Source of the DNA: an uncultured Planctomycetota bacterium
GTDB lineage: Bacteria; Planctomycetota; UBA11346
Length of the DNA: 64,000 bases
Reading direction: 5' to 3'
NCBI GenBank assembly: GCA_903902515.1
Contig: CAIUVD010000069.1
Span: forward strand, 11,475 to 75,474
In this document: piece after piece, positions 16,039 through 63,981 of the stretch
Layout of the letters: the number at the start of each line of letters is the position of its first letter
Numbering within the stretch: the stretch's first letter is position 1
Program-made: the position numbers and the translations under genes
Notes under the pieces: generated by a model
The model's database searches: none
Told to the model about the DNA's origin: nothing
What the model saw: only the letters and a program-made list of their open reading frames with translations

Positions 16039-16307
16039 CACATGGGGTCCGGGGTCCGGGGTCCGGGGTCCGGGGTCGCGGGAAGTCGGGTCAGCCCTGG
16101 TTGTCCAGGGCCGGCGAGGCACTCGCCGGTGCGCGGGTCGAATACCGCACCGTGCAGGGAGCAGACCAGGTGGCCATCGAACAAACACTGGCCGTCACCG
16201 TAATCCAGGCCGATGCCGACGTGGGGGCAGGAGTTCAGCCAGCGGGCGATCTCGACCCCGTTCTCGCGGATGACGATGGCCTGGCGGCCGTCGGGCAGCG
16301 GGGCCAT
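16038..16307 (-). CDS. Small Rieske [2Fe-2S] ferredoxin-like protein (89 aa)
   Basis: CPHVGIGL...(17 residues)...CSLHGAVFDPRTGEC gives the CxH...CxxH Rieske ligand pattern. The C-terminal 13 residues (ATPDPGPRTPDPM) are encoded by the (GGGGTCC)n repeat. Confidence 0.55.
   Translation of the reverse strand: MAPLPDGRQAIVIRENGVEIARWLNSCPHVGIGLDYGDGQCLFDGHLVCSLHGAVFDPRTGECLAGPGQPGLTRLPATPDPGPRTPDPM
16044..16078. repeat. (GGGGTCC)x5 heptamer minisatellite, G-quadruplex-competent
   Basis: Direct reading GGGGTCCGGGGTCCGGGGTCCGGGGTCCGGGGTCG. Overlaps the 3' end of the Rieske ORF and abuts the PIN gene start. Confidence 0.9.
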
Positions 16308-16323
16308 GTCCTGGACCAACCCT

Positions 16324-16363
16324 TTCGGCTGGTGGACTTCCGGACTTCCGGACTTCCGGACTT
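16324..16363. repeat. (GGACTTCC)x4 octamer tandem repeat ending GGACCCTG
   Basis: GGACTTCCGGACTTCCGGACTTCCGGACTTCCGGACCCTG lies between the nadA stop (16376) and the Rieske start (16307). Its terminal GGACCCTGCCTCA matches the GGACCCTGACTCA terminus of the 28856-28955 array. Confidence 0.85.
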
Positions 16364-16375
16364 CCGGACCCTGCC

Positions 16376-17350
16376 TCATCCGACCGCCAGCATCCGTTCG
16401 ATCGGCAACCGGGCCCGCTCGATGAGGGTGGCGTCGAGGGTAATCTCGGGCCGACCCTCGGCCAGGCAGCGCCACAGCTTTTCGAGGGTGTTGAGGCGCA
16501 TGTGGGGGCAGGTGTTGCAGGACGTGCAGGAGCCGTCCTTGCTGCCCTTCACCGATGCGGGCGCTTCCAGGAACCGGGCCTTGGGCTGGGCCCGGCGCAT
16601 CTGGTGGATGATGCCGGGCTCGGTGACCACCAGATAGGTGCCATCGGCGGCGCCCTTCTTCACGGCTTCCAACAGGGCTTTGGTGCTGCCGACCACGTCC
16701 CCCAGGTCGCGCACGGTGGCGGGGCATTCGGGGTGGACGAGGGTGATGCAGCCGGGGTTGGCCTGCTTGAGGTCGATGATGGCCTGGGCCGAGAACAGCT
16801 CGTGGATTTCGCAGGAGCCTTCCCACAGCACCAGGTCGCGCCCGGTCTTCTGGCGCACGTAGTCGCCCAGGAAGCGGTCCGGGGCGAAAATGATGGGCTG
16901 GTCCTTCGGGATGCTCTCTACCACGGCCACGGCGTTGGAGGAGGTCACGCAGTAATCGGACAGGGCCTTCACCGCCGCCGAGGAATTGACGTAGGTCACG
17001 ACCACGTGCCCCGGGTGGGCGGCGACGAAGGCGGCGAACTCCTTGGCCGGGGCGGAATCCGCCAGGCTGCACCCGGCGGCCAGGTCCGGCAGCAACACCT
17101 GCCGCTGGGGCGAGAGGATCTTCGCGGTCTCTGCCATGAAGTGGACGCCGCAGAAAACGATGATGTCGGCCTTGGAATTGGCCGCCTCGCGGGCCAGTTG
17201 CAGACTATCGCCGATGAAGTCGGCCTGGTCCTGAATCTCGTCGGCCTGGTAGTAGTGGGCCAGGATGACGGCGTTCTTGGCCTTCTTGAGGCGCTGGATC
17301 TCGGCCGCCAGGTCGACGGGCGGGGTCAGGCGGGACAGGGGCAGGATCAT
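16376..17350 (-). CDS. nadA: Quinolinate synthase A
   Basis: Full-length match to the NadA fold: ...VILAHYYQADEIQDQADFIGDSL..., three repeated subdomains, and the CPHM/Cys cluster region (SCTSCNTCPHMR). Confidence 0.95.
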   Translation of the reverse strand: MILPLSRLTPPVDLAAEIQRLKKAKNAVILAHYYQADEIQDQADFIGDSLQLAREAANSKADIIVFCGVHFMAETAKILSPQRQVLLPDLAAGCSLADSAPAKEFAAFVAAHPGHVVVTYVNSSAAVKALSDYCVTSSNAVAVVESIPKDQPIIFAPDRFLGDYVRQKTGRDLVLWEGSCEIHELFSAQAIIDLKQANPGCITLVHPECPATVRDLGDVVGSTKALLEAVKKGAADGTYLVVTEPGIIHQMRRAQPKARFLEAPASVKGSKDGSCTSCNTCPHMRLNTLEKLWRCLAEGRPEITLDATLIERARLPIERMLAVG

Positions 17351-17409
17351 GGGCGGGAACGGTAGGCCCGCCCTTCCGCGCTCAATCGGCGCGCTACGGT
17401 GCCCGCCCC

Positions 17410-18207
17410 GTGGCTACCATCCTCGACCAGATCATCGACCACAAGCGCACCGAGATTGCCCGCCTGCCGGCGGTGGATCGCAAGGCCCTGTCCGAACTGC
17501 CCCCCACCCGGGGCTTCCGCGCGGCTCTTCAGCGGCCCAAGGGCGAACGCATTCGGGTGATTGCCGAGTGCAAGAAGGGCAGTCCCTCCAAGGGGATTTT
17601 CGTCGAGGACTACGACCCGGTCCTGACGGCCTATAAGTACCAGTTGGGCGGCGCGTCCTGCCTGTCGGTGCTGACGGACGAAAAGTTTTTCTTCGGCCAC
17701 GCCGACCACTTGAAGGCCGTCCACGCCCAGGTGTCCCTGCCGGCGATCCGCAAGGACTTCATCATCGACGACCGGCAGATCGCCCAGGCTCGCCAGTGGG
17801 GCGCCGACGCCGTGCTGCTGATTGCTGCCTGTCTGTCGGACGGGCAGATGGAGGACCTCCAGGGCCTGGCCTGGGACCTGGGCCTGGACGTCCTGGTCGA
17901 GGTCCACGACGCCGAGGAGGCGATGCGTGCCCTCAAGATCAAGGCCAACTTGGTGGGCGTGAACAATCGCAATCTCAAGGATTTCAGCATCAGCCTGAAG
18001 ACCACCTACGACCTGCTGCCGGCCCTCCTGGGCGGCGGGCGGGTGGTGGTATCTGAAAGCGGCATCAGCCACCGCGAGCAGTGCCATGAACTGGAGGAGG
18101 CCGGGGTGGACGCCGTGTTGGTCGGTGAGTCGCTTATCACCAGCGACGACCCCTCGGCAGCCCTCGCCAAACTGCGGGGCACCATCGTCCGTGGTACCCT
18201 CGGATAA
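17410..18207 (+). CDS. trpC: Indole-3-glycerol phosphate synthase
   Basis: ILDQIIDHKRTEIA, IAECKKGSPSKG, SVLTDEKFFFG, KDFIIDDRQI, VLLIAACL and ESGISHREQ are canonical TrpC motifs. Confidence 0.95.
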   Translation: MATILDQIIDHKRTEIARLPAVDRKALSELPPTRGFRAALQRPKGERIRVIAECKKGSPSKGIFVEDYDPVLTAYKYQLGGASCLSVLTDEKFFFGHADHLKAVHAQVSLPAIRKDFIIDDRQIAQARQWGADAVLLIAACLSDGQMEDLQGLAWDLGLDVLVEVHDAEEAMRALKIKANLVGVNNRNLKDFSISLKTTYDLLPALLGGGRVVVSESGISHREQCHELEEAGVDAVLVGESLITSDDPSAALAKLRGTIVRGTLG

Positions 18208-18219
18208 GCGGAGGTTCCC

Positions 18220-19092
18220 ATGCGCTTCACCAAGATGCACGGCTGCGGCAACGACTACGTCTACCTCGACGCCTTCGAGGAAACCCTGCCCAAGGACCTG
18301 GCGGGGCTGGCTCGGCGGATCAGCGATCGGCACACCGGCGTCGGCGGCGATGGCATGATCGTCCTCGCCCCACCGACCCCGGCGGCTCGGAAGAAGGGGG
18401 CCCAGGCCCGGATGCGGATGTTCAATGCCGACGGCAGCCAGAGCGAGATGTGCGGCAATGGCATCCGTTGCCTGGCCAAGTTGGCCCATGACCACGGGCG
18501 GATCGAGGGCCGGCAGCAGGTCATCGAAACCGGGGCCGGGTTGTTGACCGTGGATCTGGTCATTAAGCGCGGCTCGGTGGTCGGGGCCAGCGTGCTGATG
18601 GGTCGGCCCCGTCTGGAGCCCGCCGCCGTGCCGGTGAAGCACCCCGGCCCTGGGCCCCGGCTGCCCCTGACCCTGCGGGTCGGTGGCCACACCTGCAAAC
18701 TCCTGGCGGTCGGCATGGGCAATCCCCACGCCGTGTGTTTCGTCGAGGATCCGGACCACTACCCGGTGACGGAAGTGGGGCCCCTGATCGAGCACGACGA
18801 GGCCTTTCCCCGCCGGACCAATGTCGAGTTCGTGTGCCGCTTGGCCGACGAAAAGGGCCTGCCGGTCCTGCGGCAGCGGACCTGGGAACGCGGCAGCGGC
18901 GAAACCCTGGCCTGCGGCACGGGTTCCTGCGCCACCGTCGTGGCCGCGATCCTGACCAAGAAAATCGAGGGCCGCGAAGCCATCGTCCGCCTGTCCGGCG
19001 GCGACCTGCGGATCGCCTGGCCCGCCGATGACCAGTCCGTGCGTATGACCGGCCCGGCGGTCACGGTGTTTACCGGCACCTGGGACGCATGA
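18220..19092 (+). CDS. dapF: Diaminopimelate epimerase
   Basis: MRFTKMHGCGNDYVYLD, MFNADGSQSEMCGNGIRC and the second catalytic Cys region ERGSGETLACGTGSCA. Confidence 0.95.
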   Translation: MRFTKMHGCGNDYVYLDAFEETLPKDLAGLARRISDRHTGVGGDGMIVLAPPTPAARKKGAQARMRMFNADGSQSEMCGNGIRCLAKLAHDHGRIEGRQQVIETGAGLLTVDLVIKRGSVVGASVLMGRPRLEPAAVPVKHPGPGPRLPLTLRVGGHTCKLLAVGMGNPHAVCFVEDPDHYPVTEVGPLIEHDEAFPRRTNVEFVCRLADEKGLPVLRQRTWERGSGETLACGTGSCATVVAAILTKKIEGREAIVRLSGGDLRIAWPADDQSVRMTGPAVTVFTGTWDA

Positions 19093-19727
19093 CCCGGGGT
19101 GACCTGCTCAAGCGCGTGGCCCTCCTGCCCTTGATCATCGGGGCTGGGGTGGCGGGGGCCTATGTTGGTGTCCAGGGCCGCCCGGCCCCCGGGCCCCGGG
19201 TTGCCGATGCCCTGGTGCCCCTGGCCGAAGTGGCCACTGCCCGGGTGGAACTGCGCTCGATTCAGCGGGGAACCAGCGAGGAACATGGTTTGGTGTCCCG
19301 CAATCGGGACGAGGTGCTGATTGCCGTGGTGGTCGGTGGCGACCTCGGCATTCCCCTCGGTGACCTGACGCCGGATCGTTGGGAGGTCCGCGAGGGCGTC
19401 CTGCACATCCGGCTGCCCGCCCCGCGCCTGTTGGCCCCGGGCCTGGCGGTGGATCCGGTCCAGACCCGGGAACTGGAGACCCGCACCACCCGCTGGGAAT
19501 GGACCCGCCGCTTCAGCGATCCCGGCCCCGGCGAGGCGGCGGCCCGCTCCGCCGCCCTGGCCCGGGCGGTGGCCGAGGCCCCGGCGGTGTTCAAACGCTT
19601 GGGCCTGGAGGAGGACCTGCGGGAGACCACCCGCAAGGCCGTGACCAGCCTCCTGCCGCGTCTGCTAGGCCGCCCGGGTCTGCCGGTGGTGGTGGCGTTT
19701 GATGACGATCCCCGGGGGAACGGCTAA
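19089..19727 (+). CDS. DUF4230-like membrane-anchored hypothetical protein
   Basis: N-terminal TM helix. Overall pattern resembles DUF4230. ATGA overlap with dapF. Confidence 0.5.
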   Translation: MTRGDLLKRVALLPLIIGAGVAGAYVGVQGRPAPGPRVADALVPLAEVATARVELRSIQRGTSEEHGLVSRNRDEVLIAVVVGGDLGIPLGDLTPDRWEVREGVLHIRLPAPRLLAPGLAVDPVQTRELETRTTRWEWTRRFSDPGPGEAAARSAALARAVAEAPAVFKRLGLEEDLRETTRKAVTSLLPRLLGRPGLPVVVAFDDDPRGNG

Positions 19728-20278
19728 TGCGCCCCTGGCAATTCCTGGTTGCCCTGGCCCTGGCCTTCGGCGGTGGCTGGTGGCTGGTGCGACCATCGCC
19801 CACCGAGGTCACCGCCACCACCCTGTCCTGGGGCGTGCAGGATCTTCAGGCCATCGGCCACCTTCGCCTGCTGGCGGCCCGCATCAGCGTGTTTGAGAAG
19901 ACCGAGGGTCTTGACCCCCGGCGGCGCTACGCCGGAGTGATCCCCGTGTCCTTGGTCCTGGGCATCGACCTCGCTGGGGCCCGCCTGGTGGAGGAGGCTG
20001 GCCAACGTCGCCTAGTCCTGCCACCCGTGCGGGTGCTGCGGCGGGCCATCGATCCGGATCCCGCGGCCCGCTTCGACTGGGATGCGGCGGGGGACCAGCA
20101 CCTGCCGGGGGACTCCATCAGCCTGCCCCACCTGGCGGAACTTCAGGGCCTGCGGAGTGCCGAGCAGGAGGCCGAGCGCCTGGGCCTGTTCACCAAGTCC
20201 AAGGCCCGGGCCGAGACCCTGGTCAAGGCGTGGCTACGCGCCGGTGGCATGGCCGATGTGGCCGTCGCCTGGCGTTAA
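19727..20278 (+). CDS. Hypothetical membrane-anchored protein (DUF4230-like paralog)
   Basis: N-terminal TM helix MRPWQFLVALALAFGGGWWLV. TAATG overlap with the previous gene. Confidence 0.45.
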   Translation: MRPWQFLVALALAFGGGWWLVRPSPTEVTATTLSWGVQDLQAIGHLRLLAARISVFEKTEGLDPRRRYAGVIPVSLVLGIDLAGARLVEEAGQRRLVLPPVRVLRRAIDPDPAARFDWDAAGDQHLPGDSISLPHLAELQGLRSAEQEAERLGLFTKSKARAETLVKAWLRAGGMADVAVAWR

Positions 20279-20293
20279 GCCGGTGAACCCTCC

Positions 20294-22099: not shown

Positions 22100-22134
22100 T
22101 GGAGCAACAGGGGTCGCCCGTGCCACGGGGGTCC

Positions 22135-22917: not shown

Positions 22918-22973
22918 GCCGGCTCCGGTCCGGGACGGCGGGGCCGCCCGGTTGAAGTGATGGGTGAGGGGGG

Positions 22974-24095: not shown

Positions 24096-24099
24096 GGCG

Positions 24100-26842: not shown

Positions 26843-26893
26843 CCCCGTCGCCCCCCCCTTGCGGCGGCTGGCAGCCGCCATCATCCCCAGCCC

Positions 26894-28756
26894 ATGGCAG
26901 GCTTCCTCGGCGATGATCAGGTGCGGCGCGTCAAGGACGCCATCGACATCGTGCAGTTGATGGGCGAGTACGCGGCCCTGCGCAAATCCGGCAAAACCTT
27001 CGCCTGCTGCTGCCCGTTCCATCAGGAGCGGTCCCCCAGTTGCTACGTCTACCCGGATACCCAGTCCTACTACTGCTTCGGCTGCCAGGCCCACGGTGAC
27101 GCCATCAGCCTGATCCGGGCCAAGGAGAACGTCAGTTTTACGGACGCCCTGGAGTTGCTGGCCCGCCGGGCCGGCATCACCCTGGTCTACGAGAACAGCC
27201 GGGGCAACGACCGGGGCGAGCGCGATACGTTGATCGCCGCCTGCAACTTCGCGACCCAGTTCTACGAGAAATGCCTGTGGGAGGACGACGGTGCCGCTGC
27301 CGCCCGGGCCTACCTGCTGGAACGCCGCCAACTGGCCAAAACCACCTGTGAACGGTTCCGCCTCGGCTGGTCCCCGGGCCGAGGGGCCCTGGTGGATGCG
27401 GCCAAGCGCAAGGGCCTCGACCCCCAGATTCTGGCTCGCCTGGATCTCGCGGTCGAGCGGGATGGCCGCCTGGTGGACCGCTTCTATGAACGGGTGATGT
27501 TCCCGATTTGCGACCGTTTTGGGAATCCCCTGGCCTTCAGTGCGCGCCTGCTGCCGGAGGCGGAAAAAGCCGCCAAGGAAGCCGGTCGTGGCGTCGGCAA
27601 ATACGTCAACAACACCGACACGCCGCTTTACCACAAGGGCAGCACGGTGTTCAACCTCCACCGTGCCCGGACCGTCGCCCGGGATGCCGGTCGATTAATC
27701 GTCATGGAGGGCCCGACGGATGTCATGGCCGCCGACCAGGCGGGCATCGGCGAATGCGTGGCCGTCCTTGGCACCGCCCTGACCCCCGAGCATGCCAAGC
27801 AGCTCGGTGCCCTGGTCGGCGACAAGGGGCGCCTGTTGCTGCTCCTCGACGGCGACCGGGCTGGTCAGACCAATGCCCTCAAAGGCATCCGCACCTGCCT
27901 CGCGGTGGGCGTCCCCGTGCGGGTGGCGATCCTGCCGGATGAGCTCGATCCGTCGGAACTCCTGGCCGAGGGCCCCGGCGGCGTCGCCTCGCCTGAGGCC
28001 AAGGCGACCTTTGAAAAAGTCCTGGCCAGCGCCCGGGCCGACCTCGACCACCTCCTGCGGGCCACGGCCCCCCGGCCCTACGATCTGGCCCGGGACGATC
28101 TGGTGCGGGCGGTGGACGAAATCCTGGCGGTGGTTCGGCCCATGCCCGACGCCGAACAGCGGACCCTGGCCCTGGGCGAGGTCGCCGAGTGGTTCAACCT
28201 CCCCAAGGACCGCCTGGCCAAACGCTTGGCGGAGGGGGCCCCAACGGCCACCGCCGCCGCCTCGCCCGAAGCCGCCGCCCCGCCCATCGAACCTCCGACC
28301 ACCGCCGGCGAAGTGGTCCTCCATCTGCTCGTTGCCCACCCGTCCCTGCGGGCCGTAGCCGCCGACGACCTGGGCCTAGAGCCCAGCCATCTGCCGACTC
28401 CGTGGTCCGACCTCCTCGGTGCCCTCCTGACCCTGCCGGACGCCGACCCCGACGCCCTGTGCGCTGCGGAGGGCGTCGCCACCCACGAGGGCCTCCAGGC
28501 CGCCGTCCGCCGCTGGGCCGCGACGCCCATCGACGCCCGCCTACGGGGCAACACCGCCCCCCGGCCCGAAGGCGACGACCTCCGCCCGGAACTGGAAAGC
28601 CGCATCCGCCAACTGCGCCGGGCGGCCATCGAGCACGACATCCACCGCCTGGGTGCCGAGATCAAGGACGCCGAACGGGCTCGGGATTTTGCGCGCATCA
28701 AGGCGCTGATGGTCGAACGTTCAGAGTACCAGCGGCAGGCGCGGGATTTGGCGTGA
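26894..28756 (+). CDS. dnaG: DNA primase
   Basis: CHC2 zinc finger (CCCPFHQERSPSCYV...CFGCQAHGD). TOPRIM domain (VMEGPTDVMA...LLLDGDRAGQ). Confidence 0.95.
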   Translation: MAGFLGDDQVRRVKDAIDIVQLMGEYAALRKSGKTFACCCPFHQERSPSCYVYPDTQSYYCFGCQAHGDAISLIRAKENVSFTDALELLARRAGITLVYENSRGNDRGERDTLIAACNFATQFYEKCLWEDDGAAAARAYLLERRQLAKTTCERFRLGWSPGRGALVDAAKRKGLDPQILARLDLAVERDGRLVDRFYERVMFPICDRFGNPLAFSARLLPEAEKAAKEAGRGVGKYVNNTDTPLYHKGSTVFNLHRARTVARDAGRLIVMEGPTDVMAADQAGIGECVAVLGTALTPEHAKQLGALVGDKGRLLLLLDGDRAGQTNALKGIRTCLAVGVPVRVAILPDELDPSELLAEGPGGVASPEAKATFEKVLASARADLDHLLRATAPRPYDLARDDLVRAVDEILAVVRPMPDAEQRTLALGEVAEWFNLPKDRLAKRLAEGAPTATAAASPEAAAPPIEPPTTAGEVVLHLLVAHPSLRAVAADDLGLEPSHLPTPWSDLLGALLTLPDADPDALCAAEGVATHEGLQAAVRRWAATPIDARLRGNTAPRPEGDDLRPELESRIRQLRRAAIEHDIHRLGAEIKDAERARDFARIKALMVERSEYQRQARDLA

Positions 28757-28855
28757 GGGGCTTTCGACCTTATTGAAGTCCGGGGTCCGTGGTCAAAGAC
28801 AGGATCACTGCGGTGTTTCCAACGCCGGGGCTATTCCCACGCCGGGGGCCTCGCG

Positions 28856-28955
28856 GGACCCCGGACCCCGGACCCCGGACCCCGGACCTGAAGTGACCCC
28901 GGACCCCGGACCCCGGACCCCGGACCTGAAGTGACCCCGGACCCCGGACCCTGAC
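28856..28955. repeat. Higher-order minisatellite: [(CCCCGGA)x4-CC-TGAAGTGA]x2 + truncated third copy; G-rich (G4-competent) on the minus strand
   Basis: Two identical 38-bp super-units plus CCCCGGACCCCGGACCCTGAC. Ends 1 nt before the ATPase stop codon at 28956-28958. Confidence 0.9.
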
Positions 28956-30140
28956 TCACCGATCCGAACTCGGCATCACCCGCCGCATGAACTGATCGAA
29001 CAACGGCACGGTGAACGCCAGGTCGCCGTGGGCCGGGCTGTAAATCATGCCCTTGGCGATCAGCTTGGCCCGCACGGGACCGACGCTGTTGACCTTCACC
29101 CCCATACGATCGGCGATGACCCCCACCCGCTGAGGTTCCGGCCCCAAGTCAGCCATGGCCCGCAGGAATCGTTTTTCGCTGGGGGTCAGGCGATCAAAGC
29201 GGACGCGGAAGAAGTTCTGGTCGAGGCGCTGTACGGCCACCGGAGTGGCCGCACGGACGACCTCGACCGTGATGTTCGGGGTCGGCGCACTGTTCCAGGC
29301 CTGGTACCCCCATTCCTGGACAAAATAGGGGTAGCCGGTGGTGAAGCGGAAGATCTCCGCCAGGGCTTCGGTGGTGAACGCGGCGTTGGCCGCCCGGGCG
29401 GGATCCTGAAGGGCCCGGGCGGAGTCGGACTGGGACAGGGCCCCGATGTCCGGGAAGGCGAACAGCCGTTCGGCGTAGGATTTCGATTCGCCGGCCAGGC
29501 CCGGCAGGATCGGCAAACCGGCCCCGATCAGCACCAGCGGAAGTTGCCGCTGCTGCATCTTGTGCATGGCCATGATGAGGGCGCCGAGCTCCTTGGCGGT
29601 GAAATACTGGACCTCGTCGATCAGCAGGGCGACGGCGACGCCCCGATCCTGGGCGGCCTCGGCCACCGCCACGAACAGGTGGGGGAGGTCGATTTCGATG
29701 TCGCCACTGTCGGCGGACCCGGTTTCAGGATCCACGTCAAGGGACAGGGACAGGTCCTGGAATTCGACCTTGATGGTGCCAATGAAACTCCGCAGGACCG
29801 ACAGGGCCCGGCGGACCCGATGCCCGGTCCCCGCGAGGCGACTGAGGTCGTAGAGCAGGGACCGGAGGTGGGGGGCCAGGAACGGTCCCAGGGGTTTGCC
29901 TTCGTGGGCTTCAATCAGGATGGCGCGGTAGTCAGCGGACTCTGCCAGACGATGGATCTCATTGAGCAGCACCGTCTTGCCGGTTCCCCGCAGGCCGGTC
30001 AGCAAGAGGCTTTTCTCGGCCTTTCCGGCCTTGATGCGGTGCAGCAGCACATGGGCCTGTTCCAGCACCGGCTGGCGACCGACGAGTTCGGGTGGCGGGG
30101 CGCCGGCACCGGGGGAAAACGGGTTAGCGATGGCATCCAT
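28956..30140 (-). CDS. Orphan AAA+ ATPase (Arch_ATPase/DUF234-like) with C-terminal winged-helix-like region
   Basis: Walker A LLTGLRGTGKTVLL. Walker B ALLIDEVQ. ~150-aa C-terminal domain with helix-rich DNA-binding character. Confidence 0.75.
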   Translation of the reverse strand: MDAIANPFSPGAGAPPPELVGRQPVLEQAHVLLHRIKAGKAEKSLLLTGLRGTGKTVLLNEIHRLAESADYRAILIEAHEGKPLGPFLAPHLRSLLYDLSRLAGTGHRVRRALSVLRSFIGTIKVEFQDLSLSLDVDPETGSADSGDIEIDLPHLFVAVAEAAQDRGVAVALLIDEVQYFTAKELGALIMAMHKMQQRQLPLVLIGAGLPILPGLAGESKSYAERLFAFPDIGALSQSDSARALQDPARAANAAFTTEALAEIFRFTTGYPYFVQEWGYQAWNSAPTPNITVEVVRAATPVAVQRLDQNFFRVRFDRLTPSEKRFLRAMADLGPEPQRVGVIADRMGVKVNSVGPVRAKLIAKGMIYSPAHGDLAFTVPLFDQFMRRVMPSSDR

Positions 30141-30145
30141 AGGGA

Positions 30146-41421: not shown

Positions 41422-43866
41422 ATGCCCCACTCCCTGCCGCCCCGTCGTCCCCACCGCGATGACCGCCATCCCGGGGGACGGGGAACCCGTACCGGACTCC
41501 GACGGAGGGCGCCTGCACGGTCCTCCGCCGGAGTCCTGGTCCTGGTCGTCCTGGGGTTGGTGGCCGCCGGGGGCTTGGCCTGGTACCACGCCGGGATGCC
41601 GACCACGATTCCCGAGACCGTGGCCAGGGGGCCCACCGCTCCTGCCGTTCCATCGCCCCCAACTCCGGCTCCAGCCCCACCCTCCGCACCCCGGGCTCCG
41701 GAGCACTCCTCACGTAACGAGCCATCCCTCACCGGGGATGTCGTGGCGCGTCAGGGCGCGGCCCCGGCCAAACCACCGCACGACCCGGAACCACCGTTTC
41801 CGACGCCCGCCTTCGCTCGGGGTCTTCCGCCTCCGGGCACGGTGATGCTCGCGGTCTCGCCGCCTCCCGAATCGCCGGAGGTGCCCATGCCCCCCAGTGA
41901 CGCGACGTCATCGACACCGGCTCCGCCAGCGAGCGAGCGCGCGGAACCGGCAGCATCGGAATCGGGCCCGGTTGCCGCTTCGCCACCGTCGTCCAAGACC
42001 CCGGCAAGCCGGTCGAAAACCCCGGCCTCGGGTGCCGCGTCCGCCGCCAAAGGCCGACGTCTTCAACCGGCCACGCTCTTAGCTAGTGCCGTGCGTGGCC
42101 ACCCCCGCCTTTTCGCGGATCGCGCCACTTTTGACCGCATCGCCCGCAGCACCACGCCCATGGTCCAGGAATCCCTCCGCATCCTGGCGGCCGAGGCGGC
42201 GTATCACCGTGCCCGGCCCCTGCTTGAGTATCGGGTTGATGGCTTCCGCCTCCTGGCGGTCAGCCGCTCCGCCGTGCAACGCATCAGCGGCCTGGCAGGC
42301 GCCTACCGGATGCTGGGGGATCGGGACGCCGGTGATGCCGCCTGTCGCAACCTGATGGCGATCGTTCGCTTCCAGGACTGGAACCCCCGTCACTACCTGG
42401 ATGTCGGGGAAATGACCCTGGCCGCCGCCCTGGGCTATGACTGGTGCTACGACTTACTGACGCCCGAGGAACGGCAGGAGGTTCGCGCGGCCATCGCCAC
42501 CAAGGGCATCGAGCCATCCTTCGTCGAACCGCAACTCTTCTGGGTGGCTGGACACACCAACTGGACCCAGGTGTGCCATGCCGGTCTGGTGGCGGGGGCC
42601 CTGGCGATCTACGAAGAGGAACCGGATCTGGCGCGGCGGACCATCCTGCGGGCGCTCACGTATTTGCCGAAGGCTGCCGATACCATCTATGATCCGTCCG
42701 GAAATTATCCGGAAGGGACCATGTACTGGGGCTACGGGACCATGTACCACCTCATCGCCATCGAGGCCCTCCGTTCGGTCCTGGGGTCGGATGGTGGGCT
42801 CGGGAGTCATCCCGGCCTCCTGGCCAGTGGCGAGTTCTTTTCCCATGGTCATGGACCCACGGGCCAGCCGTTCTGTTATGGCGACAGTTCCCCTGCTACG
42901 CCGGGATGGTTGGTCAATGCCGCCTCGCTGGCCTGGTTTGCACGAGAGAACGGCCGCGCGGCCTTGCTGCCGCCGTCCCCCATGACGCCCCATCGATCTT
43001 CGGAGAATGCCGCCCATCGCTTCGCGGCCTTCCTGCCGCTGTGGCTCCAGGATTCGCCTTCCCAGGGTGCGCCTTTGCCCCTGGAGTGGGTCGGCGGCGG
43101 TATTCGCCGCGTGTGGATGGCCCGCAGCGCCTGGAATGATCCCGAGGCCTCCTTCGTCGGGGTCACGGCGGGTTCCCCCGGCGATCACCATGGCCACATG
43201 GACACGGGCAGTTTCATTTTCGAACAGGGTGGCGTGCGCTGGGCCCACGACCTGGGGATGCATCCCTACGAGCCGTTGGAGAAAGCCGGCCTGAAATTGT
43301 GGGACTTGTCCCAGGACAGCCAACGGTGGACGGTCTTCCGTCTGGGTGCTGAGGCCCACAACATCCTTCGTCTTCCGGGCATCACCCAAAATGTCACCGG
43401 CCGCGCGACCCTGGTCCAACGCTCCGAGCATCCTGCCAGACCCGGATGCGATCTGGACCTGACCTCGCTCTACGCCCCCCAGGCTACGCGCGTGGTCCGC
43501 CAGGTCCGGTTCCCGGGGCGCAGCGCCCTGGAGGTGACGGACGAAATCGAAGGCCTGGCCATCACCGGCACCCTGCGCTGGCAGATGATGACCCAGGCCC
43601 AGGTGGAGGTCGCGCCCGACGGTCGGGGGGCGATCCTGACCCAGGACGGCCGGTCTTTGCCCTTGTCGGTTACGGAGCCCGCCCGGGCCCGGGTCACCGT
43701 CACCCCCGCCGGTCCCACCCTGCCGTTCGAACGGGAGAACCCGGAGTTCACGCGGGTGGTGATCGAGGTTCCCGCCGACCAGGGGTCCTCAACCCGGATC
43801 CGGGTCCTCCTGGGTTCCTCCCCGGCCCCTGGCAGACCAGGGAATAGCGAGCGACGCCCACGCTGA
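41422..43866 (+). CDS. Heparinase II/III-family lyase, paralog 2, with N-terminal TM anchor and ~200-aa Pro/Ala/Ser-rich linker
   Basis: TM segment AGVLVLVVLGLVAAGGLAWY, then a low-complexity PTPAPAPPSAP...linker, then a heparinase core ~80% identical to paralog 1. Confidence 0.8.
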   Translation: MPHSLPPRRPHRDDRHPGGRGTRTGLRRRAPARSSAGVLVLVVLGLVAAGGLAWYHAGMPTTIPETVARGPTAPAVPSPPTPAPAPPSAPRAPEHSSRNEPSLTGDVVARQGAAPAKPPHDPEPPFPTPAFARGLPPPGTVMLAVSPPPESPEVPMPPSDATSSTPAPPASERAEPAASESGPVAASPPSSKTPASRSKTPASGAASAAKGRRLQPATLLASAVRGHPRLFADRATFDRIARSTTPMVQESLRILAAEAAYHRARPLLEYRVDGFRLLAVSRSAVQRISGLAGAYRMLGDRDAGDAACRNLMAIVRFQDWNPRHYLDVGEMTLAAALGYDWCYDLLTPEERQEVRAAIATKGIEPSFVEPQLFWVAGHTNWTQVCHAGLVAGALAIYEEEPDLARRTILRALTYLPKAADTIYDPSGNYPEGTMYWGYGTMYHLIAIEALRSVLGSDGGLGSHPGLLASGEFFSHGHGPTGQPFCYGDSSPATPGWLVNAASLAWFARENGRAALLPPSPMTPHRSSENAAHRFAAFLPLWLQDSPSQGAPLPLEWVGGGIRRVWMARSAWNDPEASFVGVTAGSPGDHHGHMDTGSFIFEQGGVRWAHDLGMHPYEPLEKAGLKLWDLSQDSQRWTVFRLGAEAHNILRLPGITQNVTGRATLVQRSEHPARPGCDLDLTSLYAPQATRVVRQVRFPGRSALEVTDEIEGLAITGTLRWQMMTQAQVEVAPDGRGAILTQDGRSLPLSVTEPARARVTVTPAGPTLPFERENPEFTRVVIEVPADQGSSTRIRVLLGSSPAPGRPGNSERRPR

Positions 43867-43998
43867 GACGCCGCTTGATGAGGACGGTGATGGTGCGCCT
43901 GGGTCGGCCCTTCTCAGGCTTCAGGAAGGGTCAGCTGGGGATGGCATCTCGGCGCATCGGCAGCCTGGCCCCGAGCAAATGCGGAGGAGCCTCGAACC

Positions 43999-44091: not shown

Positions 44092-44802
44092 ATGGGTCGT
44101 ATCTTCACCGTCCTTTGCTCCTCCTGCCTTGCCACTCTCGCCATCGGCGCTGAGGGCATGGCCGCGAACAACCTGCGCCTCAGCGTGGGCGTCGCTCGGG
44201 GCTTCGACATCCCGCAGGAAGAGTTGGACAAGACCACCAACAGTTTAATGGAGGAGTTCGATATCGCGGTCGGGGCCTATGAAACCAACGCCGCCACGAC
44301 GCTGGAGGTCCCGATGCTGTTCGAGCTTCCAGCCCAGGGCCGTTTCCGATTCCTGGCTGGACCGGCGGCATTTTACTCGCGCAATACCAACGACATTCAT
44401 CTGTTCGCCACGGACCTCCTGGGTCCCGATTCCCTCACCGCCAACGGCAGCGATACGATTACCGTCGTGGGTCTCAAGCTGTATGGCGGCGGCCGCTACA
44501 TGGTGCAGGACCAGTTCGCCCTCGAGTTCCTCCCCTACCTGGGGTATGGTCGTACGCGGGTCCAGTCGGAGGGGTCTATTCGCGGCGAGCTGGGTGGGAT
44601 CTCCATCGATGAAAACATGCGGGAGACTTACTCCGGGAATGCCCTCCTGTACGGGGCCACCATGGGCGCGTACTACCTGTCGCCTTCGGGATTCCAGATT
44701 GGCTCACGTCTTGGCTATGCGGGCGGAACGTCCACCGTTGATGACGTCAAATACACGCAAAATGGCGCCTCCCTGTCCCTCGATGTCGGCTGGGGCTGGT
44801 AA
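44092..44802 (+). CDS. Outer-membrane beta-barrel protein (porin-like), C-terminal ...GWGW
   Basis: Signal peptide. Alternating amphipathic strands. Aromatic C-terminal residue typical of an OMP beta-signal. Confidence 0.6.
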   Translation: MGRIFTVLCSSCLATLAIGAEGMAANNLRLSVGVARGFDIPQEELDKTTNSLMEEFDIAVGAYETNAATTLEVPMLFELPAQGRFRFLAGPAAFYSRNTNDIHLFATDLLGPDSLTANGSDTITVVGLKLYGGGRYMVQDQFALEFLPYLGYGRTRVQSEGSIRGELGGISIDENMRETYSGNALLYGATMGAYYLSPSGFQIGSRLGYAGGTSTVDDVKYTQNGASLSLDVGWGW

Positions 44803-49585: not shown

Positions 49586-49805
49586 CAAGCTGGAACACGC
49601 AATTAGCCGATAGAGACCCATAGGACACGTCGGCTTTTGTCGTCCTGGCACCATCTTTCCCAGGGCACCCATCTGATGATGCAAAAACCGCAGGTGTGGT
49701 CCAGCTCCAAGGCGCGTGATGTGACGGCATGGCAGCGCCATGTCGAGTGTCGCGCAACGATGGAGATGGGCCGCAACAGCGGTTTTGGGGATCAACTGAA
49801 GTTGA

Positions 49806-51394: not shown

Positions 51395-51443
51395 CATTTA
51401 CCGCCGGCACCCCGGCGGCGACGGTCGTCCGTGACCTGGCATC

Positions 51444-53093: not shown

Positions 53094-53113
53094 CACCGTG
53101 CGGGTGGTGCTGC

Positions 53114-55105: not shown

Positions 55106-55161
55106 GGCGTAGGGGCGGGAGGCGGTGGTGGAGGGGCAGAAGCGGAACCACGAGCGAGGAC

Positions 55162-60211: not shown

Positions 60212-60248
60212 CTTGGGGCACCACCATCAGCAAAATCCAGGGGCCTGA

Positions 60249-60264
60249 TTGCGGATCTGTGACA
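60249..60264 (+). promoter_or_regulatory. Conserved motif TTGCGGATCTGTGACA (instance 7)
   Basis: In the 87-nt gap between the divergent GH operon (minus) and the beta-helix gene (plus). 35 nt upstream of ATG 60299. Confidence 0.6.
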
Positions 60265-60298
60265 TTACCGATGAGGACCCCGGCCGCAGCATATCGGT

Positions 60299-61945
60299 AT
60301 GCGCCAGCCTCTCCTGCCGAGTGTGGTGATCCTCCTCCTCCTGGTCCTGGGAAGCGGCCTGCTGACAGCCCAGGAATGGTTTGTGGATCCTGGGGGGCGA
60401 GCTCCGGGCAAAGGTTCCTCCCAGGAGCCGTGGGTTTCCTTGGCCGCCGCCGTCGGGCATAAGAACGTTAGCGCAGGAGACACCATCAACCTGCGACCGG
60501 GGATCTACCAGAGCCAGGCCAGGGACGAAATTTACCTCACGAAAGCGCGCCTGACCCTGCGTCCGGATCCATCTCGGTCTGGTCGGGTCATCATTGATGG
60601 GGGGGTACTGTCCCAAGACCTGAGGAACCGTGATGCCGAAGGCAAGCAGAAGCGCATAGCCAACTACGGCCAAACCAAAAGGGTGCTACAAATCACTGCC
60701 AATGACGTGACCATCATGGGTTTGGAGGTCCGAAATGGCTATGTGGGCATTTACAGCAATGCCGCCAACACGCGGATTCTGAAATGTCATGTGCACAATA
60801 TGGCCCAGTCCGCCATCTCCTTGAGCGGAGAAGGGGCGGAGATTGCCTCCTGCATCGTTCACGATGTCGCTTTGTACAACATCGACGGGCAATGCCTGGC
60901 CAAGGACGACCCCACGGACCGAGATAAACGGAAAAAGGTCTATCGCGACGATGGAAGTATGATGACGAATTCGGATGGATCGCCGAAAAACATGGACTGG
61001 CCGGTCGCCATCCGTGTGAACGGTACGTATCCCCAAGATACCAGTAAGCCTCTCGCCCAACTCAACATCAGTAGGAAAGCCCGGGTCCACGACAACCTGC
61101 TATGGAACGCCTGGTGTGAGGGCTTTGGCTCTTATTTCTCAGAAGATGCTCTCTTCGTCAACAACACCGCCTTCAATATTTGGCGGATCGGCTACTACCC
61201 GCAGAACGCCGATCGGGCGGTGCTGGACGGCAATCTTATTTTCTATCGCAATCATGGATTCGATGAGTGGGCGAACCGGGACGGCATCATCTTTAACAAC
61301 GAGCGTCCTCGAGACTACCTCGTTAGCCGACATGGAGCAAAAAATGAGCTTCCAGACACGTCGGGTCTCGTTCTTCGCGGTAACATGGTCCTTGGGGCGA
61401 AATCGGGTCTCAGTTCCCCGACGTGGAAGGATCCGAAGCAACTCAATACCCAGTCCAACACCACCGTCACCATCCGGGGCAACCTGATCGGATTCATTGA
61501 GGACTCAGCCTCGGGTGCCCCTACCTCGGGTATCCATATCGGTACCCATGTTCGTGGAATCACCCGCGTGGAGTGGAACCTGCTGGTGAGTAGTCGAACT
61601 ATGGTCTCGGACTGGAGGTCGATCTTCGCCGCTGCCGATACGACCCGTACGGTGAGGGTCGAGGACAACAATCGGACCGTCTCCCATACGACGGAACCCG
61701 CGTTGGCCGATCTCGCCTCGTTGCAGGACGCCGTGCTGACGAAGGCCACGGCGGTGGCAAACCTTGCTCGAGATGGTTCGGGGCCACGGGATACCGGAAG
61801 TGCCCTGCGCGAGCTCCAAGACGCCGTTGGCAATCTTCGTGCCCCCCTGGTCGGCCTCCTCCGGGATCGGCAGACAACACCTCCCAATTCGGCACCGAGC
61901 ATCCAGTCGACCGCCGCCAATCCACCCGTTGTCACCCTGCCCTGA
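60299..61945 (+). CDS. Secreted right-handed parallel beta-helix repeat protein (pectate-lyase-like polysaccharide lyase/hydrolase fold)
   Basis: Signal peptide. Repeated beta-helix rungs (ITANDVTIMGLEVRNG, NTRILKCHVHNM, EIASCIVHDV, AVLDGNLIF, VLRGNMVLG, TIRGNLIGF). GC ~52-55%, versus ~68% in the flanks. Confidence 0.7.
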   Translation: MRQPLLPSVVILLLLVLGSGLLTAQEWFVDPGGRAPGKGSSQEPWVSLAAAVGHKNVSAGDTINLRPGIYQSQARDEIYLTKARLTLRPDPSRSGRVIIDGGVLSQDLRNRDAEGKQKRIANYGQTKRVLQITANDVTIMGLEVRNGYVGIYSNAANTRILKCHVHNMAQSAISLSGEGAEIASCIVHDVALYNIDGQCLAKDDPTDRDKRKKVYRDDGSMMTNSDGSPKNMDWPVAIRVNGTYPQDTSKPLAQLNISRKARVHDNLLWNAWCEGFGSYFSEDALFVNNTAFNIWRIGYYPQNADRAVLDGNLIFYRNHGFDEWANRDGIIFNNERPRDYLVSRHGAKNELPDTSGLVLRGNMVLGAKSGLSSPTWKDPKQLNTQSNTTVTIRGNLIGFIEDSASGAPTSGIHIGTHVRGITRVEWNLLVSSRTMVSDWRSIFAAADTTRTVRVEDNNRTVSHTTEPALADLASLQDAVLTKATAVANLARDGSGPRDTGSALRELQDAVGNLRAPLVGLLRDRQTTPPNSAPSIQSTAANPPVVTLP

Positions 61946-61955
61946 GGATCCACCC

Positions 61956-62648
61956 ATGCCATGCTTCCTGCGCCTGCTCGCCCTGACCTGCGCCCTGATC
62001 GGCTCTGCTGCCGCTGTCGAAACCCAGCTGCAGGTCACCGCCACGGACGATAATCTTCCACGGGGAAACTTGACCTATACGTGGTCGGTGAGCGCCTTTC
62101 CGGCGGATGCCACCGGTTCGAATCAGGCCCAGATCAGCTCGGCACCCAATGCCGCCTTTCCGACCGCCAATCAGCAGAATCCTCGAGTCGTGCTCCGGGT
62201 CGCGGGAACCTATAAGTTTCGGGTGGAGGTGTACGACGGACACCTGACCACATCGAGTTCTGCGGCCCAAGAAGTCACGGTGGTCGTGAATCCTCCGCCC
62301 AACACGGCGCCCACCCTCACCGCGATCCAAGACCAGTTGATCGCCCGGAATGGCGCCACGGGCGCGCTCCAATTCACGGTCACTGACAACGCCGCCAATC
62401 TCAAGGTGGAATGGGAAACCACCAATGCGACCCTGGTGCCGACATCGGCGGTCGAACTGGCAGGGACTGGCGCCAGCCGGACGATCAAGGTCACTCCCGC
62501 CCGCGACCAAAGCGGTACGGCCACGATCACGGTGAAAGTTACGGATGCGGGAGGACTGACGTCCTCCATCCGGTTCACCTTGACGGTGAATGCTCCGCCG
62601 ACCATCACCCGGACCAGTGCCGCTCAAACCACCCTGACGTTGCCGTGA
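61956..62648 (+). CDS. Secreted tandem Ig-like/PKD-like domain protein
   Basis: Signal peptide MPCFLRLLALTCALIGSAAA. Two ~95-aa beta-sandwich repeats (..TYTWSV..., ..LQFTVTD...). Confidence 0.6.
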   Translation: MPCFLRLLALTCALIGSAAAVETQLQVTATDDNLPRGNLTYTWSVSAFPADATGSNQAQISSAPNAAFPTANQQNPRVVLRVAGTYKFRVEVYDGHLTTSSSAAQEVTVVVNPPPNTAPTLTAIQDQLIARNGATGALQFTVTDNAANLKVEWETTNATLVPTSAVELAGTGASRTIKVTPARDQSGTATITVKVTDAGGLTSSIRFTLTVNAPPTITRTSAAQTTLTLP

Positions 62649-62672
62649 TCACCACTCCCCTGGAGGGTTCCC

Positions 62673-63146
62673 ATGCGTGTGACCCTGTTCTTGATCGGGA
62701 TGGCCCTGCTGGCTCCGATGCCGGTGTCGGCCGAGGTCACCACCACCCTCCAACTTGAGGCTCACGACGACGGTCTTCCGTCGGCTGGGCTCCAGTACCG
62801 CTGGTCGGTACTGGCGGCCCCGTCGGGTGGCCAGGTTCGCTTTACCCCCTCGGCCGAGGACCCGCAGCCCCAGGTGGCTTTCGACCTACCCGGGACCTAT
62901 CGCCTGGGGGTCGACGTCGGTGACGGTCATCTGACCACCCGCGCGTCGATGGAGATCGTGGTGCAGGCTTCATCGACGGTCACGACGCCGGAGGCCACCC
63001 AGGACACCTCCACCACGACGGATGCCGGTGGCGGATGTGGTGGCGGAAGTTCTCTGGCCATTCTGCTCGGGGCCTTGGGTCTGATCGGTTGCCTTAGCCG
63101 CCGCGCTTCGGCAGTTCCCTACCGAGGAACTTCACCACGGCCTTGA
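62673..63146 (+). CDS. Ig-like domain protein with Gly-rich linker and C-terminal TM anchor (PEP-CTERM-like but lacking PEP)
   Basis: Domain paralogous to the N-terminus of the previous gene (DDGLPSAGLQYRWSV...GTYRLGVDVGDGHLTT versus DDNLPRGNLTYTWSV...GTYKFRVEVYDGHLTT). C-terminus GGGCGGGSSLAILLGALGLIGCLSRRAS. Confidence 0.55.
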   Translation: MRVTLFLIGMALLAPMPVSAEVTTTLQLEAHDDGLPSAGLQYRWSVLAAPSGGQVRFTPSAEDPQPQVAFDLPGTYRLGVDVGDGHLTTRASMEIVVQASSTVTTPEATQDTSTTTDAGGGCGGGSSLAILLGALGLIGCLSRRASAVPYRGTSPRP

Positions 63147-63981
63147 GGTCTTCCCAGCAGGGCTTCTTGGCCGGGGGGTTTCGCAGCAAATAGGCGGGAT
63201 GGAAGGTCGGTAGCAGGGGGATGCCCCGCCAGTCCAGCATCTTGCCCCGCTGGGCGGTGATGCCGAGTTTGTCGTCGCCGGTCAGGGCCCGCAGGGGCGT
63301 GTTGCCGAGGGCCACGATGATCTTCGGTCGGATGGCCAGCAACTGCCGGTTCAGGTAGGGCAGGCAGGCGGCGACCTCGCCGGATTCCGGGGTGCGGTTG
63401 CCGGGCGGTCGGCATTTGACGACATTGGCGATGTACACGTCCTCGCGCCGGAACCCCATGGCCTGGATCATGGCCGTCAGCAGTTCCCCTGCCGCTCCAA
63501 CAAACGGCCGACCCTGGACGTCTTCATCGGCCCCCGGACCTTCGCCCACGAACACCAGTTCAGCGGCGGGATTGCCCTCGCCGGGCACGGTGTTGGTGCG
63601 GGTTTGGCACAGCCCGCAGGCCCGGCAGGCGGCGACCTGGGCGGCGATGGAGGTTAGTTCGGAGGCGGGTAATGGGGAGGGGGGAGGGTCGCCCCCGGTC
63701 CGGGGTCCGGGGTCCGGGGTCCGGGGTCTGGCGGGAACGATGATCGGTGGTGGTTCCGGCGTCGGTTCTGGGCTGTGGCTTCGCCCACGAGAGGTCGGGA
63801 GCACCGCTTGAGGATCCAGGAACTCCAGGCCAAAATCCTGGTCCAGGAGCAACTGTTCCCGCAAATCGGCCAACACCGATTCCCGATTATCGGGACCCCG
63901 GACCCCGGACCCCGGACCCCGGACATCATTACCCACCCTGCACCTCCATCCGCCCGCGAGCCGCCCGCCACAGCAGCACAT
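63094..63981 (-). CDS. Family-4 uracil-DNA glycosylase with N-terminal extension containing two (GGGGTCC)n-encoded tracts
   Basis: GEGPGADEDVQGRPFVGAAG and HPAYLLRNP motifs, plus the Cys cluster (CRACGLC...C), are UDG family 4. The N-terminal ~110 aa include VRGPGSGVRGPD and PRTPDPGPRTGG, which are encoded by the repeats. The true start is at or beyond 63981. Confidence 0.75.
   Translation of the reverse strand: MCCCGGRLAGGWRCRVGNDVRGPGSGVRGPDNRESVLADLREQLLLDQDFGLEFLDPQAVLPTSRGRSHSPEPTPEPPPIIVPARPRTPDPGPRTGGDPPPSPLPASELTSIAAQVAACRACGLCQTRTNTVPGEGNPAAELVFVGEGPGADEDVQGRPFVGAAGELLTAMIQAMGFRREDVYIANVVKCRPPGNRTPESGEVAACLPYLNRQLLAIRPKIIVALGNTPLRALTGDDKLGITAQRGKMLDWRGIPLLPTFHPAYLLRNPPAKKPCWEDLKAVVKFLGRELPKRGG
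63691..63722. repeat. (GGGGTCC)x4 heptamer repeat
   Basis: CCGGTCCGGGGTCCGGGGTCCGGGGTCCGGGGTCTGG. Lies inside the UDG N-terminal extension. Confidence 0.9.
63895..63925. repeat. (CCCCGGA)x4 heptamer repeat (opposite orientation)
   Basis: GGGACCCCGGACCCCGGACCCCGGACCCCGGACATC. Inverted relative to the 63691 copy 170 nt away. Confidence 0.9.

Follow-up and report, generated by a model that had tools for sequence, protein, structure and literature searches.

Inverted pairs of GGGGTCC-type heptamer arrays at gene junctions of an uncultured Planctomycetota bacterium as probable arms of long mRNA hairpins

The window considered here is the whole stretch of 64,000 nt from an uncultured Planctomycetota bacterium (lineage UBA11346; assembly GCA_903902515.1, contig CAIUVD010000069.1, positions 11,475 to 75,474), in which the heptamer GGGGTCC is repeated in short tandem arrays next to the ends of genes. 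Five GGGGTCC arrays are present at three genomic sites of the 64 kb, which an earlier note on this DNA had counted as five loci, and a fourth site is located just past the window end. Each array has an inverted partner 60–290 nt away, and each pair brackets a gene junction. The arrays most likely represent the arms of long mRNA hairpins at cistron junctions; this is suggested by their complementarity and by comparison of orthologous junctions, from which a function in translation or mRNA processing could be proposed.

The earlier description of a dispersed repeat family at gene boundaries is correct: three units, (GGGGTCC)3, match the window at 11 places when up to one mismatch is allowed, against 0.00 expected from 100 dinucleotide shuffles. 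Tandem Repeats Finder (TRF) agrees and delimits period-7 arrays at 16044–16082, 28856–28951, 63697–63728 and 63893–63924 (96–100% matches). The coordinates given before are right to within a few bases; the last two arrays had been placed at 63691–63722 and 63895–63925. No other 7-mer is found in three or more tandem copies across the 64 kb, the G+C content of which is 60–71%; the sole further array of comparable kind is built of an octamer, (GGACTTCC)4.5, at 16334–16369. This array, a short inverted arm at 28773–28795 and the inverted pairing of all arrays are added here to the earlier note. A stop codon is situated within 17 nt of five of the seven arms, and the array length is mostly 4.1–4.9 units both in the window and in the orthologues. 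Contigs of short-read assemblies often terminate in or beside arrays, which is consistent with a multi-copy family. Proteins identical to those of the window are encoded by freshwater-lake metagenome contigs, including those of the metagenome-assembled genome (MAG) GCA_903882295.1 and contigs 75–76 kb long, and the named relatives of DnaG and of uracil-DNA glycosylase (UDG) belong to Planctomycetota MAGs only, with an identity of at most 57%.

The junction of an ABC2_membrane_6 gene and the UDG gene (locus 3) comprises the following features.

63094–63936, minus strand: family-4 uracil-DNA glycosylase, 280 aa from GTG (PF03167, E = 4e-41)
63674–63690, plus strand: GGGGAGGGGGGAGGG tract beside the 3' arm
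63697–63728, plus strand: (GGACCCC)4.6, 3' arm in the mRNA (TRF)
63893–63924, minus strand: (GGGGTCC)4.6, 5' arm in the mRNA (TRF)
63929–64000, minus strand: 3' end of the ABC2_membrane_6 gene (stop TAA at 63929–63931), which leaves the window

The array at 63893–63924 begins at the UDG start or just within it, 1–4 nt past the TAATGA stop that closes the ABC2_membrane_6 gene, and its translation requires use of the annotated GTG start. The second array is located 165 nt downstream of this arm, between the conserved N-terminal helix and the catalytic core of UDG, where it is translated as RPRTPDPGPRT, a Pro-rich linker. Translation of the array at 63697 is obligatory, since the stretch from it to the CRACGLC motif offers no start codon in frame. 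The two arrays are 100% complementary over 31 nt. The loop of the hairpin contains the conserved N-terminal helix of UDG, which, according to the alignment, is also kept in many repeat-free UDGs of the Planctomycete type.

Comparison of the close UDG clade, which has 72–84% nucleotide identity to the window, reveals arrays at the same two positions. The unit varies by lineage, and the arms are reverse-complementary within each lineage:

Window: 5' arm GGGGTCC, 3' arm GGACCCC
L124, L126 and L128: 5' arm GGGGAGA, 3' arm TCTCCCC
L127: 5' arm GGCGTCT, 3' arm AGACGCC
L129: 5' arm of GGGGAGG type, 3' arm of CCTCCCC type

Minimum free energy (MFE) folds of the UDG 5' region pair both arrays in all four orthologue types, with z-scores of −7.45, −8.19, −9.47 and −3.46. 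The duplex energy of the arms belonging to one junction amounts to −75 to −86 kcal/mol, and that of arms combined across unit classes to −13 to −51 kcal/mol, except for the purine-rich classes (GGGGAGA and the GGGGAGG type), which cross-pair at −56 to −70 kcal/mol. The long hairpin from the two opposite-orientation UDG arrays, mentioned in the earlier note as one possibility, is thus the best-supported reading, since all orthologues fold the arrays together (z from −3.5 to −9.5) and the arms covary. The GGGGAGGGGGGAGGG tract beside the 3' arm of the window is a remnant of the GGGGAGG-type stem that makes up the whole helix in L129.

Covariation of the arms could also be produced by a genome-wide fashion for one unit or another. 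Contig L124, and similarly L129, excludes this explanation: on L124 the arms at one junction are GGGGTCC/GGACCCC, those of a second pair 830 nt away are GGGGAGA/TCTCCCC, and therefore the unit is set locus by locus and not genome-wide. A metagenome scan for more UDG orthologues returned, among the matches listed, only relatives with 45–66% identity. A long-range duplex test on the few usable sequences of this range detected no pairing outside the close clade, a test that is uninformative for low-complexity arms.

Locus 4, just past the window end, is a fourth inverted pair at the junction of the His_biosynth and ABC2 genes. In L127 (4960–5010) these genes overlap by ATGA and no repeats are present. 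In other lineages (L124, 360–500) about 135 nt, comprising two arrays and a loop, separate the two genes, and both open reading frames (ORFs) reach into the arms; the ABC2 protein of the repeat-bearing form acquires a new N-terminal extension, MSDAPRGPNAPPTDTPPGPRTPDPGPRTKAGGLA. The absence of locus 4 from L127 is clean, so an origin by insertion or expansion is possible. The locus 4 loops differ between two assemblies of the same species (L222, 1–65, versus L132, 1–70), and the L222 region is the extreme end of a contig; the difference could be real, or it could stem from a join made through the repeat during assembly.

Locus 1 belongs to a minus-strand operon with the order NadA, Rieske protein, 205-aa RHH-like protein.

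15421–16038, minus strand: 205-aa protein with an RHH-like N-terminus (RHH_5, 23.9 bits, under the cutoff); its ATG overlaps the Rieske stop
16038–16379, minus strand: Rieske [2Fe-2S] ORF, 113 aa (Pfam PF00355, E = 3e-8), enclosed by the arms of locus 1
16044–16082, G-rich strand plus: (GGGGTCC)5.4 array (TRF), C-rich 3' arm in the minus-strand mRNA
16334–16369, plus strand: octamer array (GGACTTCC)4.5 (TRF), 5' arm (GGAAGUCC)n in the mRNA
16376–17350, minus strand: NadA, quinolinate synthase (PF02445), the upstream cistron

The 205-aa protein had been labelled PIN; Pfam gives only the sub-threshold RHH N-terminus, and residues 40–205 have no Pfam family match. The Rieske TGA overlaps the ATG of the gene for this protein, and the array at 16044, described before as spanning the Rieske stop and the next start, adjoins both (ATGTGATGG, 16035–16043) and spans neither. 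The octamer arm begins a few nucleotides after the NadA stop and the Rieske ATG. The Rieske ORF, called as 113 aa in all assemblies, continues through the heptamer array, which codes for the tail TPDPGPRTPDP and leaves 3 nt to the overlap of stop and start; the full tail reads ATPDPGPRTPDPM. Arrays are accordingly read in several frames within ORFs, as had been noted, in the Rieske tail and in the UDG linker. In repeat-free Rieske homologues the dozen codons at this place specify the terminal beta-strand (LxRLPxxVxDGxIxV), and therefore the array overwrote coding sequence.

In the MFE fold of locus 1 the octamer and heptamer arrays enclose the whole Rieske ORF and pair with each other in regularly spaced helices of 6 bp (GUCCGG/CCGGAC; z = −3.47). 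The orthologue L137 has about five GGGGTCC units at the position of the octamer arm, forming a perfect GGGGTCC/GGACCCC pair round the whole Rieske ORF (z = −7.66). The sequence of locus 1 is identical among seven assemblies.

Other observations concern the surroundings of this operon. In L134 the NadA–Rieske spacer contains an element of about 110 nt (463–573) with terminal inverted repeats CCAAAGCCTCACCTG and CAGGTGAGGCTTTGG; it has 80% identity to window positions 49684–49794, in opposite orientation, and is probably a separate small dispersed element resembling a miniature inverted-repeat transposable element (MITE). In L137 the gene of the RHH-like protein is followed directly by genes matching window positions 5578–2755 (SpoU methylase, peptidase M1), and therefore about 10 kb of the window (5578–15435), with FecR/sigma factor, GSDH, cytochrome c, Big_5 and RoxA-like genes, represent a lineage-specific insertion or deletion. 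A recurrent contig break is placed at window position 17883, within an imperfect GGGCCT hexamer run in the IGPS gene (17862–17887), where three independent assemblies (L011, L013, L014) begin.

At locus 2 the repeats occupy the spacer that separates the convergently oriented dnaG and ATPase genes.

26894–28756, plus strand: dnaG primase, convergent with the ATPase gene
28773–28795, plus strand: short G-type arm TTGAAGTCCGGGGTCCGTGGTCA, an inverted repeat 17 nt past the dnaG stop
28856–28951, G-rich strand minus: three (GGGGTCC) blocks (TRF), 4 nt from the ATPase stop
28956–30140, minus strand: AAA_16/AAA_22 ATPase (Pfam), stop at 28956–28958

The blocks end at 28951, and not at 28955 as originally reported, and the gap to the ATPase stop is 4 nt instead of 1 nt. 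They constitute 2.5 copies of a perfect 38-nt higher-order unit (four heptamers plus TGAAGT each). The short arm is 86–94% complementary to each of the blocks and is paired in the MFE structure. Five short-read contigs terminate in or just beyond 28856–28951. No terminator-like site (GC-rich hairpin followed by a U-tract) was found in 28600–29100, and an intrinsic terminator was rejected as an explanation of locus 2. In a sibling lineage (DnaG P0148, 89% identical) the DUF309 gene directly follows dnaG with no ATPase gene between them; thus, as judged from gene order, the AAA_16 ATPase gene and probably the locus 2 arrays are confined to the window lineage.

The window also contains a non-heptamer inverted repeat of 30 nt, 90% complementary, at 43848–43877 and 44169–44198. 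The first arm overlaps the stop of the gene at 41422–43866, and the second is situated about 26 codons into the gene at 44092–44802, a junction-spanning layout like that of the UDG locus. This hints that junction-spanning helices could be a wider habit of this genome.

The earlier note described the repeat as competent to form G-quadruplexes (G4) and listed G4-mediated control of transcription or translation among its possible roles. Selection could indeed act on a G-quadruplex, or on an i-motif of the C-rich strand, which in DNA or RNA would influence transcription, replication or translation. Each GGGGTCC array meets the minimal intramolecular motif: it is a canonical (G4N3)4 sequence with four to five G4 tracts and 3-nt loops (G4Hunter score 1.08 for arm plus flanks). 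Most variant units are G4-competent as well (1.1–2.25), and the heptamer repeats of Xanthomonas and Nostoc, which have a four-unit mode, form G4 in circular dichroism experiments (Rehm et al. 2015, PMC4692102). A preference for a G-rich 5' arm, described below, could reflect co-transcriptional G4 folding before the C-rich arm emerges. However, GGCGTCT has a G4Hunter score of 0.30 and no motif with tracts of three or more G, and GGACCTC is not G4-competent either; yet arrays of these units, with 4.6 and 4.4 units respectively, stand at orthologous positions. They hold 4–5 units, and therefore the four-unit mode, which Rehm et al. tied to G4, is independent of G4 potential in this clade. G4 formation as the defining property is not supported, as the arrays of both units keep position, length and, where a partner exists, pairing. 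In addition, it is the C-rich strand that appears in the mRNA of locus 1 and of the array within the UDG ORF, and a perfect partner arm of about 30 nt (duplex of about −80 kcal/mol) would out-compete a G-quadruplex. A G4 function is therefore considered unlikely.

Copy number of the units differs between assemblies, as the earlier note had proposed to check. Contig L222 (76,225 nt) has 99.92% identity to the window over 10.9 kb, with a single indel, by which the array within the UDG ORF is shorter by one heptamer; L002 has one 38-nt unit fewer at locus 2, where point variants are present in other assemblies. The differences of L222 and L002 both come from short-read assemblies and are provisional. 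The window allele of locus 3 is common to five assemblies. In the L222 allele, UDG is truncated after 91 residues with the catalytic core out of frame, and the gene caller gives a fragment of 164 aa. The prediction that a change by one unit would frameshift the ORF is thus borne out by an apparently natural allele.

Phase variation as the function of the array is a different matter. The UDG array could be a contingency locus, in which slippage by one or two units toggles UDG and generates transient mutator subpopulations. The heptamer is not a multiple of three and lies inside the UDG ORF, and L222 differs by exactly one unit with a truncated product. On the other hand, the proposal rests on a single variant allele from one short-read assembly against the intact allele in five others, and the UDG ORF is open in all six lineages. 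A length of mere 4–5 units implies a low switching rate, arrays are also present at housekeeping junctions where a switch is implausible, and Rehm et al. (2015, PMC4692102) argued against phase variation for the heptamer class. Such a role is improbable. Both the G4 function and the UDG phase switch are less likely than hairpin formation.

Arrays of at least four GGGGTCC units are not genome-specific, as the earlier note had suggested they might be: they occur in more than 109 stretches of species-representative genomes of Acidobacteriota, Planctomycetota, Actinomycetota and others. Many loci come from few MAGs (Thermoanaerobaculaceae Prado014, Planctomycetota UWPOB_PLANC5 and others), and actinomycetes give single hits. 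The preference for gene boundaries claimed before is supported by this set, where 6 of 110 arrays are in gene interiors, compared with 1227 of 2140 (57%) random positions, the assignment being made by a crude classifier that combines an open-frame test with codon-position GC. At least eight close inverted pairs were found in other genomes, all with the G-rich arm first as at the four sites of this lineage, and no C-first pair is present among the matches listed. With the pairs of the window and orthologues included, the G-rich arm is 5' and the C-rich arm 3' in 12 of 12 pairs (window, L018, L019, L050, L060, L062, L067, L079, L088, L124, L129). Two of the pairs were inspected: that of UWPOB_PLANC5 is located between convergent stops, and that of a Thermoanaerobaculaceae MAG in an intercistronic spacer.

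Taken together, these data are best explained if inverted heptamer-array pairs bracket cistron junctions and arm complementarity is the conserved property, most likely acting at the RNA level; this interpretation is held with moderate confidence. The G-rich 5' arm and the C-rich 3' arm, of 4–5 units (about 30 nt) each, would form a helix of about 30 bp in the polycistronic mRNA, enclosing the start region of the downstream cistron. At locus 3 the UDG start and the N-terminal helix would be enclosed, at locus 1 the whole Rieske ORF and the start of the next gene, and at locus 2 the 3' end shared by dnaG and the ATPase gene, which converge there. With such a helix, translation of the downstream cistron would depend on ribosomes coming from the upstream one, by coupling or occlusion. 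The helix could also serve as a double-stranded RNA (dsRNA) target for RNase III, or as an exonuclease block protecting the 3' end. What the sequences show is the anatomy and pairing potential of the arrays, the covariation of their arms, a length that persists in units without G4 potential, the polymorphism and the recurrence of the architecture in other phyla; we infer that the helix exists in living cells and that it influences translation or mRNA processing. The arrays would arise and turn over by replication slippage, with new units sweeping through an array, and the partner arm would follow a change of unit either via selection for pairing or via hairpin-templated copying. No unit has a stop codon in any of the six frames, which lets arrays run into linkers or past the end of an ORF and be translated; slippage would now and then inactivate a gene.

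Several observations weigh against this interpretation. The constant G-arm-first polarity is not predicted by a plain hairpin function. Among the matches listed, most (GGGGTCC)n arrays elsewhere are without an exact partner within 500 nt. The fold of locus 2 is no better than those of shuffled sequences (z = −1.70). Pairing at the Rieske locus is not strictly kept: the 5' arm of the window is an octamer array whose pairing is interrupted by mismatched loops, and in lineage L134 a (GGACCTC)4.4 array stands without a 5' array. The pairing is therefore usual, not absolute. Finally, covariation of the arms could stem from mutational strand-switch copying of one arm, without selection.

A purely mutational, functionless origin of arm complementarity is a serious rival. 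According to it, the arrays would be slippage-prone selfish or neutral repeats surviving where harm is small, namely in intergenic DNA, at the ends of ORFs and in disordered linkers, and the arms would be kept complementary by intramolecular template switching in the hairpin ('quasipalindrome correction') or by ectopic conversion from other arrays. Perfect arrays imply recent turnover; the GGACCTC array of L134 shows that a whole array changes its unit without a partner; and the UDG pair of the window, which consists of the dominant unit of the clade within older GGGGAGG stem remnants, resembles invasion or conversion. One array has replaced the final beta-strand of the Rieske protein and another can inactivate UDG, the strong depletion of arrays from gene interiors is as expected for tolerated junk, and no function was identified in Xanthomonas and Nostoc (PMC4692102). 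Yet the pairs persist at the same two UDG positions through divergence to 72–84% nucleotide identity, and the length is held tightly at 4–5 units whatever the unit. The arms precisely adjoin stop and start codons, the polarity is constant, and the design recurs in distant phyla. The absence of function is regarded as possible rather than probable.

The arrays could also be tandem binding sites for a sequence-specific protein, such as a restriction-modification system, a nucleoid protein or an RNA-binding regulator. Each GGGGTCC unit contains GGWCC, an AvaII-type site. The same unit is common to several loci of the clade and to distant phyla, and TAACTGA heptamers were proposed as regulator binding sites (PMC4679880). 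However, GGGGAGA, GGCGTCT and GGGGAGG at orthologous sites lose GGWCC while position, length and pairing are kept, and no candidate protein was identified. This explanation is very improbable.

An extended form of the hairpin interpretation can be formulated as a speculation, which is unlikely to hold in full: the pairs would be evolvable dsRNA switches at cistron junctions across phyla, in which the G-rich arm folds during transcription and is captured by the C-rich arm, arm length tuned by slippage sets the access of ribosomes or RNase III, and the UDG locus, where slippage reversibly turns off a repair enzyme, operates as a mutator switch. If this were true, the constant G-first polarity and the wholesale co-replacement of arms would be signatures of the mechanism.

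Heptamers are an over-represented class of long simple-sequence repeats in many bacteria, and their role has been open since the short tandemly repeated repetitive (STRR) sequences of 1990; Rehm et al. (2015) favoured G-quadruplexes without finding a function. At orthologous junctions the unit is free to change, and what is kept is arm pairing, length and position relative to stop and start codons, which moves the question from G4 to the role of a 30-bp mRNA helix around a cistron start. In practical terms, the arrays break short-read assemblies, inflate ORF calls with low-complexity tails and can yield frameshift alleles of housekeeping genes in natural populations.

Among known elements, several were considered and rejected. 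Rfam 15 has no match at the gathering score in the whole window, and a literature search for the literal unit GGGGTCC gave irrelevant hits only. A MITE or another mobile hairpin does not fit, as the loops of loci 2, 3 and 4 are without homology and the loop of locus 3 is conserved UDG coding sequence. A CRISPR array, which has repeats of 23–50 nt and unique spacers of similar length between them, was rejected as well: the blocks of locus 2 are parted by an identical 7-nt link of TGAAGT type, i.e., they form a 38-nt tandem repeat. Type III toxI-like repeats and integron attC sites differ in anatomy from the arrays, which have identical spacers, perfect arms without extrahelical bases and cassette-free operons.

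Repetitive extragenic palindromic (REP) sequences have roles in mRNA stabilisation and termination. The arrays resemble the REP/BIME/REPIN elements of Enterobacteria and Pseudomonas (Bertels & Rainey 2011, PMC3116915) in being short, dispersed and extragenic, in their position at gene 3' ends and between cistrons, and in their inverted doublets able to form hairpins. REP sequences are imperfect palindromes of fixed sequence that RAYT transposases spread, whereas tandem heptamers with turnover by slippage make up the arms here. The REP/REPIN assignment was rejected: there is no fixed palindrome, the unit differs between loci of one contig, and the loops are unrelated. No RAYT was seen within about 76 kb of this genome, although no search was aimed at it.

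Other tandem heptamers have been described. The cyanobacterial STRR heptamers of Calothrix and Anabaena (Mazel et al. 1990), e.g., CCCCAGT, are reportedly present in many copies per genome and mostly intergenic; they are likewise tandem heptamers, and the taxon and the units differ. The TAACTGA repeats of Beggiatoaceae, Cyanobacteria and Bacteroidetes occur as hundreds of sets of 2–6 copies a few nucleotides upstream of starts, with one indirect repeat among them, and were proposed as protein-binding sites (MacGregor 2015, PMC4679880). They share with the present arrays the tandem heptamer and the occurrence in unrelated phyla; unlike these, they are AT-rich, stop-containing and almost never inverted.

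A parallel to the proposed hairpin is the (ATCTTTC)n repeat in the 5' untranslated region of hmw1A of H. influenzae, which is one arm of an mRNA hairpin that RNase III cleaves and that controls hmw1A (Rapun-Araiz et al. 2025, NAR, PMC12721329). In both cases transcribed heptamers with a polymorphic repeat number make up the arm of a long hairpin beside a start codon, the pairing being predicted in the present case. The hmw1A repeat belongs to a single virulence locus, has 10 or more units and pairs with a G-rich non-repeat right arm, whereas a dispersed family is observed here. RNase III cleavage and phase variation of hmw1A were shown by experiment, while the present arrays are known from sequence alone.

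The closest known class comprises the G-rich heptamers dispersed in the genomes of Xanthomonas (GGGAATC) and Nostoc (GGGGA(C/T)T), described by Rehm et al. (2015, PLoS One, PMC4692102). These repeats are dispersed, about 90% intergenic, located tens of nucleotides from ORF ends and have a mode of four units. Both strands are transcribed, and G4 are formed in vitro, with no function found. Each Xanthomonas genome contains 70–75 convergent inverted pairs able to form stem-loops, 'convergent' meaning the same G-arm-first polarity as here; the paired inverted organisation is reported to be rare in Nostoc. The present arrays share with this class a heptamer led by a G-run, occurrence at several separate sites (here three in 64 kb and a fourth just outside), a non-coding bias, proximity to ORF ends, a length of about four units, convergent pairs, and length and sequence that vary between close relatives at conserved positions. 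They differ in the unit, GGGGTCC and not GGGNATC, so that only the G-run and the length are common; in the host, a member of Planctomycetota, with GGGGTCC also in Acidobacteriota and others; in that all sites seen in this lineage are paired; and in that several arrays are translated as ORF ends or linkers. The arrays are thus a new example of this class, to which the comparison of orthologues made here adds the arm-to-arm covariation and the unit variants without G4 potential, both beyond the scope of the study by Rehm et al.

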